A stretch of DNA of 64,000 nucleotides from an uncultured delta proteobacterium (GTDB taxonomy: Bacteria; Myxococcota_A; Polyangia; Haliangiales; Haliangiaceae): positions 197,470 through 261,469 of the forward strand of contig CAVZFC010000035.1 of assembly GCA_963774445.1 (NCBI GenBank), given 5' to 3'. Every line of letters begins with the position of its first letter. Position 1 is the stretch's first letter. Positions 36,836 to 49,551 of this stretch are shown one piece after another. Under the pieces are notes generated by a model that was not told where the DNA came from, did no database searches, and worked only from the letters and a program-made list of their open reading frames with translations. A program made the position numbers and the translations under genes.

Positions 36836-38860
36836 ATGGCCAATTCGTCCAATCCACTCACCACCGTGAAGTTCGCGGTCCCGTTCGACCGCATCTCCGC
36901 TGAGCACGTAGAGCCGGCGGTCGACGAGCTGATCGCCGCCGGGCAGTCCGCGATCGAGGCGATCGCGGACGACCCCGCGCCGCGCAGCTACGACAGCACT
37001 CTGGGCGCGCTCGAGCGGGCGACGGAAACCCTGGAGTGGGCGATGACGGTGGTCGGCCACCTCGAGTCGGTGGCGACCACACCCGCGCTGCGCGACGCCT
37101 ACAACACGGTGCAGCCGCGAGTCAGCGCCTTCTGGTCGAAGATCCCGATGCACGCCGGGCTGTGGCAGGCGCTGCGCGACTTCGCCGAGACCGACGAGGC
37201 GCGCGCGCTTACCGGCGCTCGCAAGCGCCACCTGGAAAAGACGCTCGACGAGTTCCGCCGCCACGGCGCCGAGCTCGACGACGCCGGCAAAGAGACGCTG
37301 GCCGCCATCGACGTCGAGCTGTCGACGCTGACCACCACCTTTTCGCAGCACACCCTCGACGCGACCAACGCCTTCGAGCTGATCGTCACCGACGAGACGC
37401 GCCTGGCCGGCCTTCCCGAGTCGGCGCGGGCAGCCGCCCGCGAGAGCGCCCGGCAGAAGGGGATCGAAGGCTGGCGCTTCACCCTGCAAGCGCCCAGCGT
37501 CATCCCGGTGCTCACATATATGGAGGACACCGCCACCCGCGAGGCGGTCTGGCGCGCCTACAACGACCGCGCCTACGGCGGCGATCTCGACAACGCGGCG
37601 ATCATCGCCCGGGTGCTGGAGCTGCGCGGGCAGAAGGCGCGCCTGCTCGGCTACCGCGACTGGGCCGACTTCGTGCTCGCCGACCGGATGGCCGGCAACG
37701 CCGCCCGCGCGCGCACCTTCGTCGACGAGCTGCGCGACAAGACCCTCGCCGCCTTCGAGCGCGAGAACCGCGCGCTGATCGACTTTCGCCGCGCGGCCGG
37801 CGACGACGGCGAGATGCAGGCGTGGGACGTCTCCTTCTGGTCGGAGAAGCAGCGCAAGTCGCTGTACGCCTTCGACGAGGAGGAGCTGCGCCCGTACTTC
37901 CCGGCCGCCGCGGTGCTGCGCGGGGTCTTCGACACCGTCAACCGCCTCTACGGCATCAGGGTCGAGACGGACGACGACGCCCCCACCTGGGATCCGGAGG
38001 TGACCGCCTATCGCATGGTCGACGCAGACGGCAGCCACCTGGCGTCGTTCTACGTCGACCTCTACCCGCGCGAGAACAAGCGCGGCGGCGCGTGGATGAA
38101 CGGACTGATCACCGGCGTGCGGCCGTCGCCGCACCTGGGCCTGTTTTGCGCCAACGTCAACCGCCCGGTCGGCGATACGCCAGCGCTGCTCACCCACCGC
38201 GAGGTCGAGACCATCTTCCACGAGTTCGGTCACCTGGTGCACCACTGCGTGGGCAACTCTCCGGTGCGCAGCCGCGGGGCGATGAACGTGGCCTGGGACT
38301 TCGTCGAGCTGCCGTCGCAGATCATGGAGAACTGGTGCTGGGAGCGCGAGGCGCTGGATCTGTTCGCCCGCCACTGGCAGACCGGCGAGACCATCCCCGA
38401 CGAGCTGCTCGGCAAGATGCAGCGCGCGCGCACCTACCGGGCGGGCAATGCGCAGATGCGCCAGCTCGGCTTCGCCGCGGTCGACCTCGCGCTGCACTGC
38501 GACTACGACCCGGCGCGCGACGGCGAGGTAGTGGCCTACGCGCGCGGCGTGTTGCAGGCCCACACGCCGACGCCGCTGCCCGAGCGCTACGCGATGATCT
38601 GCTCGTTCGGCCACCTGTTCGCCAGCCCGGTCGGCTACGCCGCCGGCTACTACTCGTACAAGTGGGCCGAGGTGCTGGACGCCGACGCCTTCACCCGCTT
38701 CCGCGACGAGGGGGTGTTCAATCGCGAGGTCGGTCAGGCGTTCCTCCACGAAGTGCTCGCCCCGGGTGACACGCGGGATGCGATGGAGCTGTACCGCGCG
38801 TTCATGGGCCGCGAGCCGGCGCTGGAAGCGCTACTCGAGCGGCTGGGGCTGGCCAGCTGA
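36836..38860 (+). CDS. M3-family zinc oligopeptidase (peptidyl-dipeptidase Dcp / oligopeptidase A-like)
   Basis: HEFGHLVHH zinc motif and a downstream E ligand region; the length is typical for M3. Confidence 0.9.
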   Translation: MANSSNPLTTVKFAVPFDRISAEHVEPAVDELIAAGQSAIEAIADDPAPRSYDSTLGALERATETLEWAMTVVGHLESVATTPALRDAYNTVQPRVSAFWSKIPMHAGLWQALRDFAETDEARALTGARKRHLEKTLDEFRRHGAELDDAGKETLAAIDVELSTLTTTFSQHTLDATNAFELIVTDETRLAGLPESARAAARESARQKGIEGWRFTLQAPSVIPVLTYMEDTATREAVWRAYNDRAYGGDLDNAAIIARVLELRGQKARLLGYRDWADFVLADRMAGNAARARTFVDELRDKTLAAFERENRALIDFRRAAGDDGEMQAWDVSFWSEKQRKSLYAFDEEELRPYFPAAAVLRGVFDTVNRLYGIRVETDDDAPTWDPEVTAYRMVDADGSHLASFYVDLYPRENKRGGAWMNGLITGVRPSPHLGLFCANVNRPVGDTPALLTHREVETIFHEFGHLVHHCVGNSPVRSRGAMNVAWDFVELPSQIMENWCWEREALDLFARHWQTGETIPDELLGKMQRARTYRAGNAQMRQLGFAAVDLALHCDYDPARDGEVVAYARGVLQAHTPTPLPERYAMICSFGHLFASPVGYAAGYYSYKWAEVLDADAFTRFRDEGVFNREVGQAFLHEVLAPGDTRDAMELYRAFMGREPALEALLERLGLAS

Positions 38861-39651
38861 TGCGCGTGGCCACGCTGCTGGTCGCGGCGCTGGCTGTCGG
38901 CGCGTGCGGCAAGTCGCACGACAAGGGCAAGGCAGCGGCGCCGCCGCCGAGCGTGCCGGTGACGCTGGGGGCGTGCACGATCGAGGCGCCGGCGGCCAAG
39001 GTGCTGCCGGCCGGGCCCGGCTCCCGGGCCAGCCTCGCGCTCGGCGCGCCCGAGGTCACCGGGCTCGAGGTCGACCCGGTGCGTCGCTTCTTCGGCGAGC
39101 AGGCGGGCGCGCTGAAGGGCTGCTACGAGGCCGAGCTGGTGACGAGTCCGAGCCTGGCCGGCACCCTCACCATCGACGTGACGCTGAACGACGGCGGTGA
39201 CATCCTGACCCTCGACGCCCGCGGTGTCGATCCGGCCGTCGATGCCTGCGTGGCCCGGCGGCTGCGCATGACCATGGCGTTCGCCCCGGCGCGCGGGGAA
39301 AAGTCGGCGCGCATCCACATCGCGCTGACCTTGCGGCCGCCGAAGACGCAGGCGAGCGCCGGCGCGCCCGCGGCCGCGCCGGCCCCGGAGGTGCGAACCG
39401 TGGCCAATCCGATGGCGCCGCTGACGGCCGAGCTCGGAGCCTGCTTCGCGGCCCGGACCGCGCAGCCGCCCGGCACCGCTGAAATCCGCGTCGCGATGGG
39501 CGACGGCGGGCTGGTCAGCGCCGTGGAGGTCCAGGGCGTGACCGATCGCGCGGCGATCTCCTGCGTCACCCGCGTGGTCCGCCAGGCCGTCTGGCCCGAG
39601 GGGGACGGCGCGTACCGCTGCGCGGTGTCGTATGGCGCAAAATCGCCCTGA
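38860..39651 (+). CDS. lipoprotein with two AgmX/PglI C-terminal-like (TonB-C-like) domains
   Basis: Lipobox ALAVGAC and two repeats (GALKGCYEAEL…GTLTIDVTLNDGG; LGACFAARTAQPPGTAEIRVAMGDGG). The start overlaps the M3 stop (TGATG). Confidence 0.6.
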   Translation: MRVATLLVAALAVGACGKSHDKGKAAAPPPSVPVTLGACTIEAPAAKVLPAGPGSRASLALGAPEVTGLEVDPVRRFFGEQAGALKGCYEAELVTSPSLAGTLTIDVTLNDGGDILTLDARGVDPAVDACVARRLRMTMAFAPARGEKSARIHIALTLRPPKTQASAGAPAAAPAPEVRTVANPMAPLTAELGACFAARTAQPPGTAEIRVAMGDGGLVSAVEVQGVTDRAAISCVTRVVRQAVWPEGDGAYRCAVSYGAKSP

Positions 39652-41157: not shown

Positions 41158-41285
41158 CAGCCCGGGGGCTCGGCCCGGCCGGGGTCGGGCGACCGCAGGC
41201 GGGGGGCGGGCTCCCAGCGAGACCGGCGCAAGCCACTGGAATTACACGGCGAGAAGTTGGCCCCAGGGTCGCACTACAGTTCGCC

Positions 41286-41939
41286 ATGCTACGTGCGGGT
41301 GTCGCCATTGCTCTCTCCTGCCTCCTCGGCTCGTCGGCGTGGGCGCACACGCGTCTCACCTATCCGGCCCCGCGCAGCCCCAGCGACGGGCTCAAGACCG
41401 GCCCGTGCGGCGGCGTGCCCCCCGGCACGCCCAACCTGATCGCGGTCGGCTCGACCATCACCGTGGTGTGGAACGAGACCATCGATCACCCCGGCTACTT
41501 CCGCATCGCCTGGTCGCCGCCCGGTGACCAGGGCTTCGAGGAGAACATCCTCCTCGACCAGATCCAGGATCAGGTCTGCACCGCGCCGCCGTGCGAGTAC
41601 CGGGCCGACGTGACCCTGCCGGACCAGCCGTGCACCGGCTGCGCACTGCAGATCATCCAGTTCATGGGCACGGCCGCGCCGTACTCGCCGTACTTCTCCT
41701 GCGCCGACGTCGACCTGGTCGACCCCTCCGAGATTCCCGACGCCGGGCCGCCGATGAGCGATGCCGGCGCCAGTGGTAGCGACCCCGACGCGGGGGTCGC
41801 GGGCGACGGCGACGCGGGCATCGGCGGCGGCGCCGCAACCGGCGTCAACGGTGGATGCGCGGCGGGCGGGCAGGGCGGCAGTGGCTTCCTCGCGCTGCTC
41901 GGTCTGGCGCTGGTCGTGGCGCGCCGTCGCCGCTCCTAG
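41286..41939 (+). CDS. secreted His1 (LPMO-like/copper-binding candidate) protein with a MYXO-CTERM sorting tail
   Basis: Signal peptide cleavage is predicted at SAWA|HTRLTYPAPRS, leaving an N-terminal His. A second His lies in TIDHPGYFRIAW. The C-terminus GGCAAGGQGGSGFLALLGLALVVARRRRS is a MYXO-CTERM tail. Confidence 0.65.
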   Translation: MLRAGVAIALSCLLGSSAWAHTRLTYPAPRSPSDGLKTGPCGGVPPGTPNLIAVGSTITVVWNETIDHPGYFRIAWSPPGDQGFEENILLDQIQDQVCTAPPCEYRADVTLPDQPCTGCALQIIQFMGTAAPYSPYFSCADVDLVDPSEIPDAGPPMSDAGASGSDPDAGVAGDGDAGIGGGAATGVNGGCAAGGQGGSGFLALLGLALVVARRRRS

Positions 41940-43261
41940 TCGAAGTCGGGGGCATAGACCGCGTCGCGGTCGACCTTCTTCTTCGGCTGCTTCTTCTTCG
42001 GCTGCTTGGCCTTCTTCGTCGCCGGATGCGCCGGCTTCTTCACCTTCTTTGCCGGCGTCGGTTTCTCGGGCGGCGAGGCGACCGGCGCGGGCGGCGTCGC
42101 GTCGACGCTCGGGACCGCCGCGTCAACCGGTGACGGCGCGACCGCGGGCGCCGGCGCCGGTGCCGTCGCGGGCGCCGGTGCCGTCGCGGGAGTCGCTTCG
42201 TCGGCGGCCGGAGGCGGCTCGGGTGCGCGCCGCAGCAGGCCGGCGATCACGAACGCCACGACCATCGCGCCGGCCACGGCCAGCGGCACTGCCCGCGGCG
42301 CCCGATGGTGGACCGGTCGCTGGCGCTCGCCCGCGATCGGGAACGGCGTGGCGGCGACCGGCGGCATCGGCGTCGGCCGGGAGACCGGCGTGGCGCTGCC
42401 GTACTCGGCCAGGTGCCGCATCGGGTCGGCGATGGCCCGGCCCATCTCGGTCATCGACGCGAACCGCCGGTCGCGGTTCTTCTCCAGGGCGTGCATCACG
42501 ATGGCGTCCAGCTCGGGCGGCACGCCGGGCTCGATCGAGCTGGGCAGCGGCGGAGCCTGGAACAGGTGGCCTTGCAATGCTTCCTTCATGCCGCCGGGGA
42601 ACGGCAGGCGGCCGGTCAGCAGCTCGAACAGCACCACGCCCAGGGCGTAGACGTCCGCGCGCGGATCGATGTCGCGCTTGCCCTGGCACTGCTCCGGGCT
42701 CATGTAGGCGGGCGTTCCCAGCGCCACGCCCAGGCGGGTGCGCGCGGACGCCATGCTCGGGTCGAGCAGCTTGGCGATGCCGAAGTCCATGATCTTGACG
42801 AACAGCGGGTTCGACCGCCGCGGACAGACGTAGATGTTCTCCGGCTTCAGGTCGCGGTGGACGATGCCGTGGTCGTGCGCCGCCTGCAGGGCGTCGCAGC
42901 ACTGGGCCATGATGGTGCGGATCCCGTCGATTGACAGCCCCGCACGTCGGCGCCAGGCGGTCAGGCTCTCGCCGTCGAGGAGCTCCATCATCATGTAGAC
43001 CATCGGGCCGTGCTCGGTCTCGAGGGTCCCGAAGTCCATCACCTCGACGATGTTCTCGTGACCGATGGACGCAGCGGCCCGCGCCTCCTGGAAGAACCGC
43101 GACACCAGCTCGGGGTCGCTGGCGTTCTCCTCGTGCAGCACCTTGAGCGCCCGGGTCTGCGCGATGAGCGGGTGCTCGCACAGATAGACGGTGCCCATGC
43201 CGCCGGCGCCCAACTGCTTCTCGACGACGAAGTTGCCGATGTGGGCGCCGACGAGGTTCAT
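41936..43261 (-). CDS. Ser/Thr protein kinase with a Pro/Ala-rich linker and a Lys-rich C-terminal tail
   Basis: GAGGMGTVYLC, ALKVL, HRDLKPENIYV, DFG and SPEQ motifs, plus the tail KKVKKPAHPATKKAKQPKKKQPKKK. ATG at 43261. Confidence 0.85.
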   Translation of the reverse strand: MNLVGAHIGNFVVEKQLGAGGMGTVYLCEHPLIAQTRALKVLHEENASDPELVSRFFQEARAAASIGHENIVEVMDFGTLETEHGPMVYMMMELLDGESLTAWRRRAGLSIDGIRTIMAQCCDALQAAHDHGIVHRDLKPENIYVCPRRSNPLFVKIMDFGIAKLLDPSMASARTRLGVALGTPAYMSPEQCQGKRDIDPRADVYALGVVLFELLTGRLPFPGGMKEALQGHLFQAPPLPSSIEPGVPPELDAIVMHALEKNRDRRFASMTEMGRAIADPMRHLAEYGSATPVSRPTPMPPVAATPFPIAGERQRPVHHRAPRAVPLAVAGAMVVAFVIAGLLRRAPEPPPAADEATPATAPAPATAPAPAPAVAPSPVDAAVPSVDATPPAPVASPPEKPTPAKKVKKPAHPATKKAKQPKKKQPKKKVDRDAVYAPDFD

Positions 43262-46474: not shown

Positions 46475-48416
46475 ATGTCGGGGATGTTCCTGGTGCTCGC
46501 CTCGCTGGTCGTCTCCAACGGCGTCTCCGTGGCCCACTGCGACGGCAGCGGTCGGGTCGACTCGCTGCGCGCGCATCTGTACGCGGCGCGCGACGCCGGG
46601 ACGCCCACGGTCGAACGGATGGGCGCGCTCTACTTCGGCGTGCGCTCGGGCGGCACCAACGCCTGGCTCGACGGCGACGCCCCCGACGCGTCGGGCTACC
46701 TGGGAGACGGCGGCGTCGCGACCATGACGTGGGAGCGCGACGGCCTCCGCGTCACCGAATATCTGTTCGCGTCGTTCGCGACCGAGGCGCCGCACCTGGT
46801 CGCGCTGCTCGAGGTGACCAACACCGGCAGCGCGGCGCTGGCCGACGCGGCGATCTTCTCGCTCGAGCAGACCGTCGCCGGCGGCGACGAGAGCGCGACC
46901 TGGACCGGCGGCGCGTTCGAGGAGCGCGGCGACGTGCTGCTGCTCCACCGCCCGCTGGGCGCGCTGGCTCATCACGCGATCGATCCGCGGGCGCAGGTCG
47001 ACGCGGGCGGTCACCTGGCCGATGCCGACACGACGGGGCCGATGCCGTCCCTGGCGGTCGGCTTCGAGTGGGCGCTCGACGGACTGGTGCCCGGAGCATC
47101 GCGCACGGTCGGCGTGATCGTTGGCGTGCGCGACGACGGCGATCGCGCCGCGCTGGACGCCGGTCTCGCCGCCGTGGCGTCGGACCCCGCGCAGGCGCTG
47201 GCCGACGCGCGCGCCGACTGGGACGACTTCTTCGCCCGCGCGGCCGAGCCGCCGGGGCTCGACGGCGACGAGCGCGCGGTCTACCGCCGCTCGCTGGCGC
47301 TCCTGCGCATGGCCCAGGTGCGCGAGGCGGGCGCGCCTGCCGGGCAGATCGTCGCCGCGCTCTATCCGCTGGCCGCCGGGCGGGCGTGGGTGCGCGACGA
47401 GGCCTATGCCGCGCGGGCGCTGGTGCGCGCCGGGCTGCTCGACGAGGCGCGGGCGGCGCTGGCGTTCGTGCTGGCGGCCGGCGCCGGTACCTACCAGAGC
47501 GAGATCGGCGAGCCGTACGCCGTCAGCGTGCTGCGCCAGCGCGGTGACGGCAGCGAGGAGAGCGACGACACCGGCGCCGGGCCGCTGGTCGGCATCGACG
47601 GCTTCGGCCTGGTGCTCGGCGCGGTCAACGAGTACGTCCAGGCCAGCGGCGACACCGCGTTCGCCAGCGACCGAGCCGAGGCGCTGTTCGACCTGACGGC
47701 CACGGTGCTGACCCACCGCATCGACGTCAACGACACGCTGCTGGTCCGCCCCGACAACTCGGTGTGGAACGGCGACCGGCGCAAGTACACCTTCAGTCAG
47801 GCGGCCACGGTGTGGGGCCTGCGCGCGGCGGTGCGGCTGGCCTCCGGCGATGCGCGCGCCGACTCGTACCGCGGGGCCGCAGAATCTGTTTGCCGGCGCC
47901 ATCGCCCAGCGCCTGGTCAACGGCGGCGTGCTGACCGGCGCGCTCGAGCGCGCCGCCGGGCGGCTCGACAGCGCCGCGACGCAGGCGTTCCTCTGGGAGG
48001 TGTTGCCGCCCGACGGCGACGTCGCCCGCGCCACCCTCGACGCTGTCAACCAGGCGCTGCGGCTGCCCGACGGCAGCTACCGGCGCAACGACGAGGCGCC
48101 CGCCGAGGCGTCGCCGACCGCGGCGCTGTGGCTGGCGATGGCCAACGCTCGCGCGGGCAACGACGACCGGGCGGCCGAGATCTTGGCCGGCGTCACTGCC
48201 CGGGCCCGGACGCGCGCCGACCTCGTCGCCGGCGCCGACGGGGAGCCGGTGATCGGCCTGGGCGCCGGGTTGTTCGTCCTGGCCGCCTGGGATCGGCCGG
48301 CGGCCGCGGGCGGCGGCGGGTGTGGATGCGGCAGCGGCGGCCCCGGCGGCGGTGCGCTCCTCTTGCTCGCCGTGGCCGCCGGCCTGCGCCGTCAGCGCCG
48401 CGCGGTCGGGCCGTGA
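46475..48416 (+). CDS. GH15-like six-hairpin glycosidase (glucoamylase/glucodextranase-like) with a MYXO-CTERM tail; split across two frames near 47850-47890
   Basis: The N-terminal ~470 aa are in track ORF 46475..48493 and the C-terminal part is in ORF 47850..48416 (different frame). The tail GGGGCGCGSGGPGGGALLLLAVAAGLRRQRR is a MYXO-CTERM. Confidence 0.6.
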
Positions 48417-48464
48417 AGCATTATTTGGAAGATCGTCGTTCTCTTTGTTCCTCAGGAGCCACGC

Positions 48465-49551
48465 ATGTCCCCGACCGATCACCTCCCCGCTGATACCACC
48501 GTGCTGGTCACCGGAGCCTCCGGCTTCATGGCCGAGCACACCATCCTCCGCCTGCTCGAGGCCGGCTACCGGGTGCGCGGCACCCTGCGCTCGCTGGCCA
48601 AGGCCGATCGTGTGCGCGCCGTGCTCGCCGCCAACTCCGGCGCCGTCGATCGGGTTGAGCTCGTCGCCGCCGATCTGACCAGCGACGACGGCTGGCGCGA
48701 CGCCGTGCGCGGCTGCCGCTTCGTCTTGCACGTCGCCTCGCCCCTGCCCAGCAAACCGCCGAAAGACGAGAACGAGCTGATTGTCCCCGCGCGTGACGGC
48801 GCCCTGCGCGTGCTCGCCGCGGCCGTGGCCGAGAAGGTCGACCGCGTGGTGATGACCTCGTCGGTGGCTGCGGTGTTGTACGGTCACGCGCGCGACGGCA
48901 GCAAGACCTACGACGAGAACGACTGGTCGGAGCTGACCCGCGAGGTCGGCGCCTACGAGAAGAGCAAGACCATCGCCGAGCGCGCCGCGTGGGACTACAT
49001 GGACAGCCTGCCCGAGGAGCAGCGCGTCGAGTTGTGCACCGTCAACCCGGGCCTGGTGCTCGGCCCGGTGCTGTCGCCCGACTTCAGCACCTCGGGCGAG
49101 GTGGTGCGCAAGCTCCTGGCCCGCGAGATGCCCGGCTGCCCCGACATCGGCTGGGCCGTGGTCGAACGTGCGCGACGTCGCCGACGCCCAGCTGGCGGCG
49201 ATGATCACGCCGGAGGCGGCGGGCAAGCGCTTCGTCCTGGCGATCGAGCACGCCTCGATGCTCGACATCGCGACCATCCTGCGCGACAAATTCGCCGACC
49301 GCGGCTTCAAGGTACCGACGCGCAAGGTGCCCGGCTGGCTGCTCAAGTTGGTGTCGGTCTGGGACAAGACCGCCAAGCTGGCGGTGCCGGAGCTGGGCAA
49401 GCGCCAAGATGTGTCGCACCAGCGCGCCACCGAGCTCCTCGGCTGGCACCCCCGCCCGCTCGACGAGATGGTCACGTCGATGGGCGAGAGCATGATCCAG
49501 CACGGTGTGGTGCGCGGCAAGGGTCAGCGCAGCGTGACCGCGACCTCGTAG
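48465..49551 (+). CDS. NAD(P)-dependent SDR-family reductase/epimerase (cinnamoyl-CoA reductase / DFR-like); split across two frames near 49160
   Basis: VLVTGASGFMAEHTILRLL Rossmann motif and YEKSK active site in ORF 48465. The C-terminal part (RDVADAQLAAM…) is in ORF 49168..49551. Restoring one base regenerates the family motif GWAVVDVRDVA. Confidence 0.7.

Follow-up and report, generated by a model that had tools for sequence, protein, structure and literature searches.

What does a small myxobacterial surface protein do with a histidine predicted to stand at the very start of its mature chain? The question is raised by a gene at 41286..41939 on the plus strand of a 64,000-nucleotide stretch of DNA from an uncultured delta proteobacterium of the Haliangiaceae (contig CAVZFC010000035.1 of assembly GCA_963774445.1, positions 197,470 to 261,469; hereafter the window, meaning this whole stretch). 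We have high confidence in the identity and architecture of the product, a minimal histidine-brace domain of the lytic polysaccharide monooxygenase (LPMO) superfamily that belongs to the SCE4755 family and carries a surface lipid tether. For its function, our tentative reading, held with somewhat less than even confidence, is a cell-surface, lipid-tethered mono-copper protein with a redox-active centre, and this enzymatic account is slightly favoured over capture of copper at the cell surface.

The open reading frame (ORF) encodes 217 amino acids and starts at the first ATG downstream of a stop codon. In the part encoding the domain, the guanine-cytosine (GC) content of codon positions 1, 2 and 3 was 0.63, 0.53 and 0.92, typical for genes of this 70.5% GC window. 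Comparison with the 87%-identical orthologue of the closest genome locus (L001, in a metagenome-assembled genome labelled "uncultured delta proteobacterium") gave a ratio of nonsynonymous to synonymous substitution (dN/dS) of 0.14 for the domain and a higher one, 0.22, for the linker and tail. The domain value identifies 41286..41939 as a real gene under purifying selection. A look-up of the exact protein sequence returned no database record, and the window contains no paralogue of the gene.

Residue conservation was counted on an 81-sequence alignment including 80 homologues, many of them annotated as MYXO-CTERM, from a search of 5.8 billion proteins. Residues 1-20 (41286..41345) have the features of a Sec signal peptide, with Arg3 in the n-region, a hydrophobic core and an A-W-A ending that places alanine at positions -3 and -1; the N-terminal sequence reads MLRAGVAIALSCLLGSSAWA before the predicted cleavage site and HTRLTYPAPRSP after it, and residues 3-13 are helical in the AlphaFold2 model. 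Cleavage by signal peptidase after Ala20, predicted from the AxA rule together with family conservation, would expose His21 (codon 41346..41348) as His1 of the mature protein and first arm of the brace. Histidine occupies the aligned position in all 77 homologues covering the N-terminus, preceded at -1 by alanine (66) or glycine (9) in 75 of 75 and at -3 by alanine in 61; the median length of the prepeptide among the homologues is 22 residues. Since the histidine is present in 77/77 with conserved -1 and -3 positions, the AxA-His junction is a property of the family and not a chance occurrence.

The second predicted arm of the brace, His68 (codon 41487..41489), lies in a TIDHP loop between strands 3 and 4, within the sequence TIDHPGYF, and is invariant (81/81). 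It aligned with His91 of the AA15 enzyme TdAA15A, with the histidine of the AAHPGDF motif of the AA10 enzyme ScLPMO10C and with the equivalent histidines of AoAA13 and PcGH61D. Tyr136 (codon 41691..41693, motif Y-F-S-C-A-D), conserved in 80 of 81 sequences and predicted to be the axial tyrosine of the copper site, fell in the same column as Tyr184 of TdAA15A and, in ScLPMO10C, as the first phenylalanine of FFSCSDV. In TdAA15A, His91 is the brace histidine and Tyr184 the axial tyrosine (PMC5823890).

Across the family, positions conserved at 90-100% comprise Arg30, Lys37, Glu64, Cys116, Cys119, Gln122, Gln125, Met127, Tyr136 and Asp141, while the conservation of Asp34 is not family-wide. Glu64 and Gln122 (80/81) are near the site, and Gln125-Phe126-Met127 (41658..41666; Gln125 79/81, Met127 80/81) ends strand 7, the strand positions being those assigned by DSSP on AlphaFold2 models. 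By hairpin register, Gln125 and Met127 would lie cross-strand from Tyr136 and Ser134, which makes them candidate second-sphere residues in the model; Glu64 is a possible fourth copper ligand. The domain has six cysteines (41, 98, 103, 116, 119 and 139), with Cys41 and Cys139 invariant and Cys116 and Cys119 nearly so.

The domain itself, residues 21-145 (41346..41720), comprises 125 amino acids with a mass of 13.4 kDa and an isoelectric point of 4.3. AlphaFold2 modelled residues 21-150, from the 81-sequence alignment, as an eight-stranded sandwich with a mean predicted local distance difference test score (pLDDT) of 96.6 and a predicted template-modelling score of 0.90. The model has the Ig-like beta-sandwich core of seven or eight strands that marks the LPMO superfamily, and Foldseek was consistent with an LPMO-like sandwich. 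At the level of sequence profiles, the family profile A2 matched the AA15 structure 5msz (TdAA15A) at an E-value of 7.9e-7 and, more weakly, chains of AA10, AA13, AA9, AA11 and AA16, and neither A2 nor a second family profile, A6, matched the X325 structure 6ibh at E up to 10. Structure-based identity was likewise 30% to AA15 versus 18% to X325. The Pfam BIM1-like model (PF20238) passed, with 30.4 bits against a gathering cutoff of 27 over residues 20-146. Membership in the periplasmic copper chaperone groups CopC, YcnI and PCuAC was found neither by sequence nor by fold: the match to CopC was not significant (E 1.8) and that to YcnI was rejected (Foldseek E 0.049, TM-score 0.32).

The C-terminal part of the protein suggests how the domain is displayed. 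In the full-length AlphaFold2 model, the signal helix and the confidently predicted domain are followed by a structureless, low-confidence stretch (residues 151-199) and a terminal helix (200-216). Residues 146-190 (41721..41855) form a disordered acidic linker rich in glycine, alanine, aspartate and proline (G13 A8 D7 P5) with four D-A-G repeats, no secondary structure and pLDDT of 46-76. It leads into a MYXO-CTERM sorting signal (residues 189-217, 41850..41936) that consists of Gly-Gly-Cys191, the transmembrane helix GFLALLGLALVVA and an RRRR cluster. This tail, GGCAAGGQGGSGFLALLGLALVVARRRRS, scored above the cutoffs of both TIGR03901 MYXO-CTERM (21.9, cutoff 20) and TIGR03382 (22.5, cutoff 15.85), and the signature cysteine (Cys191, codon 41856..41858) is kept in more than 90% of the aligned homologues. 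MYXO-CTERM-like tails were found in 54 of the 80 nearest homologues, and in 135 of 224 family members some hydrophobic stretch near the C-terminus precedes a group of basic residues. The protein thus combines an N-terminal signal peptide with the tripartite tail by which MYXO-CTERM proteins are defined (PMC11980579). The cleavage after SAWA, the second conserved histidine, the compact, beta-rich and cysteine-containing domain and the MYXO-CTERM tail had all been proposed in the earlier note, and each agrees with the family alignment, the model or the profile scores; the predicted fold, which the same note had offered as a point at which its reading could fail, proved to be LPMO-like, and the predicted cleavage, its other such point, leaves the histidine N-terminal.

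By analogy with the sorting pathway described for this class (PMC11980579), the C-terminal helix would first retain the protein in the inner membrane, as TraA experiments showed for the tail helix of MYXO-CTERM proteins (PMC11980579); Cys191 would be lipidated, the helix would be cleaved off by the myxosortase MrtX, and type II secretion would bring the protein to the external side of the outer membrane. The mature form, from His21 to lipidated Cys191, would then have 171 residues and 17.4 kDa. The window protein shares with the TraA/MrtX system the invariant cysteine, the transmembrane helix, the arginine cluster and the N-terminal signal peptide, and differs from it in that its cargo is a copper-site domain; the MYXO-CTERM papers that we searched make no mention of a monooxygenase or copper cargo. 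By general annotation, neither MrtX nor a type II secretion system is among the annotated genes of the window.

The protein belongs to a family that curators have already catalogued. NCBIfam NF043005 matched residues 15-142 (profile positions 3-145 of 146) with 108.8 bits (cutoff 75; E 2.3e-31). This model, "SCE4755 family polysaccharide monooxygenase-like protein", takes its type from sce4755 of Sorangium cellulosum and is a "hypothetical equivalog", i.e. named from similarity alone. A Sorangium member (P0040) has the same combination of domain and MYXO-CTERM tail as the window protein, which is a direct NF043005 member of a sub-clade with a MGTAAPYSPY loop before Tyr136. The novelty that the earlier note expected of the protein was therefore overstated: the family has a name, and about 1,370 SCE4755 sequence clusters occur in environmental data (1,372 clusters at 50% identity in an exhaustive phmmer search with the mature domain at E <=1e-3; 579 at <=1e-10). 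An experimental study of the family was not found in our literature search: full-text searches returned nothing on sce4755 or on MYXO-CTERM together with LPMO, and a search combining LPMO with myxobacteria gave nothing relevant among its top-ranked results.

The genome loci of the family came from Myxococcota, many Bdellovibrionota (Bacteriovoracaceae, Bdellovibrionales, Oligoflexia) and some Gammaproteobacteria, a list of lineages that is no measure of enrichment, as the genome scan used peptide patterns of the close clade. A divergent clade in Hyphomonadaceae and Caulobacteraceae lacks the anchor. Multi-domain relatives carry FN3, PKD and Ig modules, and some pass the LPMO_10 gathering score at 25-34 bits. 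Separately, an amoebozoan transcriptome (Vermistella antarctica, EukProt EP01104; P0184 / P0225) contains a member in which the domain, 44% identical to that of the window protein and with a Q-D-Y motif before the axial tyrosine, is fused to a glucose/sorbosone dehydrogenase (PF07995) of the pyrroloquinoline quinone (PQQ) type; this sequence may derive from contamination or horizontal transfer.

How does the domain compare with the named families? The AA10 N-terminal motif is H-G-[YF]-[VI]-x-x-P-x-S-R, and the spacing in the window protein, H-x5-P-x2-R, matches it. Further features shared with AA10 (ScLPMO10C/CelS2, 4oy7; the 142-residue JdLPMO10A, 5aa7) are the bacterial origin, Sec export, the His1 start and a C-terminal half that aligns. 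However, the window protein lacks the large L2 region from which AA10 enzymes build their binding surface, and the axial residue is phenylalanine in AA10 and tyrosine here. The Pfam LPMO_10 model (PF03067), which the earlier note had named as a check, reached 19 bits, under its gathering cutoff of 23, and covered only profile positions 86-183. Since the LPMO_10 threshold was not reached and the L2 region is absent, the window protein is not a canonical AA10. The likeness to AA10 that the note had drawn from the N-terminus thus holds for His1 and the spacing, while AA15 and X325/BIM1-like proteins are nearer.

TdAA15A from Thermobia domestica (5msz) is the closest solved relative in both sequence and structure. 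AA15 proteins are eukaryotic or viral, and TdAA15A, at 195 residues, contains five disulfides and has an extended surface surrounding its site (PMC5823890), whereas the window protein is bacterial, has a domain of 125 residues (a third smaller) and is lipid-anchored. The two also differ beside the ligands: the position two residues before the axial tyrosine (Tyr-2) is glutamate in AA15 and serine in the window protein, and that two residues before the second brace histidine (His-2) is alanine in AA15 and Ile66 here. With X325/Bim1 (6ibh/6ibj, PF20238), the window protein shares a small LPMO-like fold with a histidine brace as well as the layout of domain, disordered linker and C-terminal lipid anchor at the cell surface. 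The fungal anchor is glycosylphosphatidylinositol (GPI) and the bacterial one MYXO-CTERM, an analogous outcome that is not homologous. In X325, an aspartate from a Gly-rich loop completes the equatorial plane and the protein is redox-inert and without polysaccharide activity (PMC7529816); an equivalent conserved aspartate was not seen in the clade of the window protein.

On these grounds we propose the following model for a redox-active copper centre at the cell surface. After Sec export, signal peptidase I would cut behind Ala20 and leave His21 N-terminal. Once the protein is sorted to the surface, the acidic linker of about 45 residues would allow the domain to swing above it, and one copper would be held by His21, through both its amino group and its imidazole, and by the imidazole of His68; Tyr136 would be the axial residue. 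We take the fourth equatorial position to be unoccupied, like that of true LPMOs, because the loop before Tyr136 shows no conserved carboxylate in the clade. The centre would then carry out oxidative chemistry, either cleavage of a nearby glycan (the cell's own exopolysaccharide, or a wall polymer of prey or fungi) or production of H2O2. Copper binding and oxidase activity are inferred for the window protein, and the following observations speak for the redox reading. Its nearest solved relative is an LPMO with proven activity on chitin and cellulose; Gln125, Gln122 and Glu64 are conserved near the site; the pre-Tyr136 loop MGTAAPYSPY of the sub-clade is short and lacks the conserved Asp or Gly-rich segment that gives X325/Bim1 its fourth ligand and its redox-inertness; and several relatives, as described above, pass the LPMO_10 gathering score and bear FN3, PKD or Ig modules. 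The PQQ-type dehydrogenase fused to the Vermistella antarctica domain is a plausible electron donor.

Several findings weigh against this proposal. Only 23 residues separate strands 1 and 2 in the AlphaFold2 model, so the broad flat binding surface of AA9 and AA10 is probably absent. Ser134 occupies the Tyr-2 position, where LPMOs usually have a second-sphere glutamate or glutamine, and this position varies across the 80 relatives, with aspartate in 36, serine in 25 and glutamate or glutamine in only 4; Gln125 and Glu64 may act as second-sphere stand-ins from other positions. No recognised carbohydrate-binding module was detected in the 20 multi-domain relatives scanned, nor did a carbohydrate-active enzyme (CAZyme) gene recur as a neighbour in the myxobacterial, Sorangium, Bdellovibrionota or alphaproteobacterial loci. 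The fusion to a PQQ-dehydrogenase comes from one transcriptome sequence only, and no second one was seen in a search swamped by the dehydrogenase domain. Finally, Met127 near the site and the Bim1-like arrangement of domain, linker and lipid fit copper trafficking at least as well.

The strongest alternative, which we consider a serious but less than even possibility, is that the protein plays in bacteria the part that Bim1/X325 plays in fungi, capturing scarce Cu(II) at the surface for uptake, or buffering it, without cleaving polysaccharides; the captured Cu(II) would be passed to an outer-membrane or periplasmic uptake route. The layout known from GPI-anchored Bim1, in which a small brace domain sits on a disordered linker that ends in a lipid anchor, and the score of the BIM1-like Pfam model point this way, as do the truncated strand 1-2 region, the lack of a carbohydrate-binding module or CAZyme context in the sequences and loci just described and the serine in place of the catalytic Glu/Gln at Tyr-2. 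Met127 (80/81) beside the site fits the same account, and Glu64 near the brace recalls Glu27 of CopC, which makes CopC a tight, redox-inert chelator of Cu(II) (PMC7529816). Relatives in Bdellovibrionota, moreover, have a Pro-rich arm ending in Cys-His and lie near a gene for a ChaN-like metal-uptake protein. Against copper capture, no copper transporter, chaperone or regulator was a conserved neighbour at any of the loci covered, which comprised 27 genome loci together with 3 contexts from metagenomes or genomes. The similarity searches and the structure-based identity also place the domain closer to AA15 than to X325, profile A2 matching AA15, AA10, AA13, AA9, AA11 and AA16 chains, and no conserved counterpart of the aspartate on the Gly-rich loop that defines X325 was seen before Tyr136 in the clade.

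A non-catalytic surface binding module or adhesin built on an Ig-like sandwich, with the two histidines and the tyrosine structural or binding another metal, is improbable. Least probable of all, that His21 is not the mature N-terminus, cleavage falling elsewhere or the protein being cut as a lipoprotein at Cys12 so that no brace forms, draws on the position of Cys12 within the hydrophobic core and is opposed by the AxA-His junction, which essentially every homologue keeps although the sequences of the signal peptides are unrelated; lipoprotein cleavage was rejected because Cys12 is not conserved and its context, A-L-S-C, does not fit the lipobox motif [LVI][ASTVI][GAS]C.

A wider reading concerns the whole family. 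We regard it as speculative, and on present evidence rather unlikely, that SCE4755 proteins form a large bacterial family of minimal, surface-displayed copper proteins of about 125 residues with the LPMO fold, a non-canonical second sphere and a new function, of which the window protein would be the first studied example. Cross-strand Gln125 and Met127 plus Glu64 would replace the Tyr-2 Glu/Gln in the second sphere of the copper. Displayed through C-terminal lipid or transmembrane anchors, and occurring in predatory Myxococcota and Bdellovibrionota with stray eukaryotic members, these proteins would either carry out a contact-dependent oxidative attack on cell-wall glycan (peptidoglycan, chitin) or be a bacterial counterpart of Bim1 scavenging. 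If true, either role would set up a functionally new family of LPMO-like proteins, and histidine-brace chemistry would have its smallest scaffold here.

The surroundings of the gene were compared across the same genome loci and contexts. In the window, the neighbours encode an M3 peptidase, a lipoprotein with an AgmX/PglI tail, a 296-residue membrane protein that has no known family, a Ser/Thr kinase in convergent orientation, a methyltransferase and an M48 peptidase, and synteny was found only with the closest relative, L001. A possible link through the methyltransferase genes of the window and of locus L028 was rejected, as their 31% similarity is generic to the S-adenosylmethionine-binding fold and the two are not orthologues. 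The predicted lipoprotein at 38860..39651 (+), which contains MRVATLLVAALAVGAC, has the AgmX/PglI C-terminal "myxo_SS_tail" domain, which is related to the gliding-motility protein GltG. Elsewhere in the window, a second MYXO-CTERM-like tail (48318..48416, GCGCGSGGPGGGALLLLAVAAGLRRQRRAVGP) ends the ORF 47850..48416 (+); upstream of it, a long ORF in a different plus-strand frame (46475..48493) has a weak, sub-threshold match to GH15 (16.7 bits), and together they may represent one gene, frameshifted or split, that encodes a glycoside-hydrolase-like protein anchored at the surface. This second tail, the "myxo_SS_tail" lipoprotein and the nearest homologues of the window protein, with the closest locus in a delta proteobacterial genome, all mark the host as a myxobacterium.

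In Bdellovibrionota, the LPMO-like gene (L003:7986-8522, L004:602-1141, L009:903-1430, L010:7908-8459 and L013:7935-8525, and also in L011 and L012) always has upstream of it a co-oriented gene, directly adjoining or overlapping it, for a Cys-rich predicted lipoprotein of about 190 residues (L003:7411-7989, L004:24-605, L009:350-895, L010:7303-7938, L011:5974-6558, L012:7295-7960 and L013:7342-7989). These lipoproteins have 7-8 conserved cysteines and are 35-41% identical across lineages of 48-63% GC, match no Pfam or NCBIfam family and have no homologue among the window neighbours; they are likely functional partners of the LPMO-like protein. The LPMO-like homologues of these bacteria end, instead of in a MYXO-CTERM tail, in a Pro/Thr-rich linker terminating in Cys-His (or Cys-Ala-Lys), of which the terminal cysteine aligned with the MYXO-CTERM cysteine. 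This end might serve as a minimal signal of the lipidation or CAAX-like type, or as an arm that binds copper; Ctr1 has a C-terminal HCH motif, of which the Cys-His arm is reminiscent. In several of the loci, a ChaN-like "haem-binding uptake, Tiki superfamily" protein (PF04187) is encoded 1-2 kb from the LPMO-like gene (L004:2075-2941, L009:2155-3021, L011:8174-9025, L012:9595-10446 and L013:9795-10643), a faint hint of a metal-acquisition neighbourhood in Bdellovibrionota.

The DNA flanking the window gene is compact on one side and conserved on the other. The TAG stop codon (41937..41939, +) overlaps by 2 bases the stop of the convergent Ser/Thr kinase gene (41936..43261, -), the two stop codons (41937-41939 and, on the minus strand, 41936-41938) sharing the palindrome CTAG, and a scan found neither an intergenic spacer nor a terminator between the two genes. 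Upstream, the 128-bp intergenic region (41158..41285) is 83% identical to L001:7893..8000 and includes two long conserved blocks, GCGACCRCAGGCGGGGGGCRGGCTCCCAGCGA and AAGTTGGCCYCARGGTCGCACTACRGTTCSCC, more conservation than the genes' synonymous divergence would predict; a promoter scan of this region detected no sigma-70-like promoter.

Histidine-brace proteins range from LPMOs that oxidise C-H bonds to redox-inert carriers such as CopC and Bim1, and what decides between these roles is open (PMC7529816, PMC10952591). For annotation, the label "polysaccharide monooxygenase-like" is to be read as a fold assignment and not as a demonstrated activity, and the SCE4755 domain could serve as a minimal scaffold for copper oxygenase engineering. 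The SCE4755 family keeps the two histidines and the tyrosine of the site with a rearranged second sphere, and its bacterial surface tether parallels that of fungal Bim1. One characterised member would tell a Bim1-like copper capture in bacteria from a contact-dependent oxidative enzyme.

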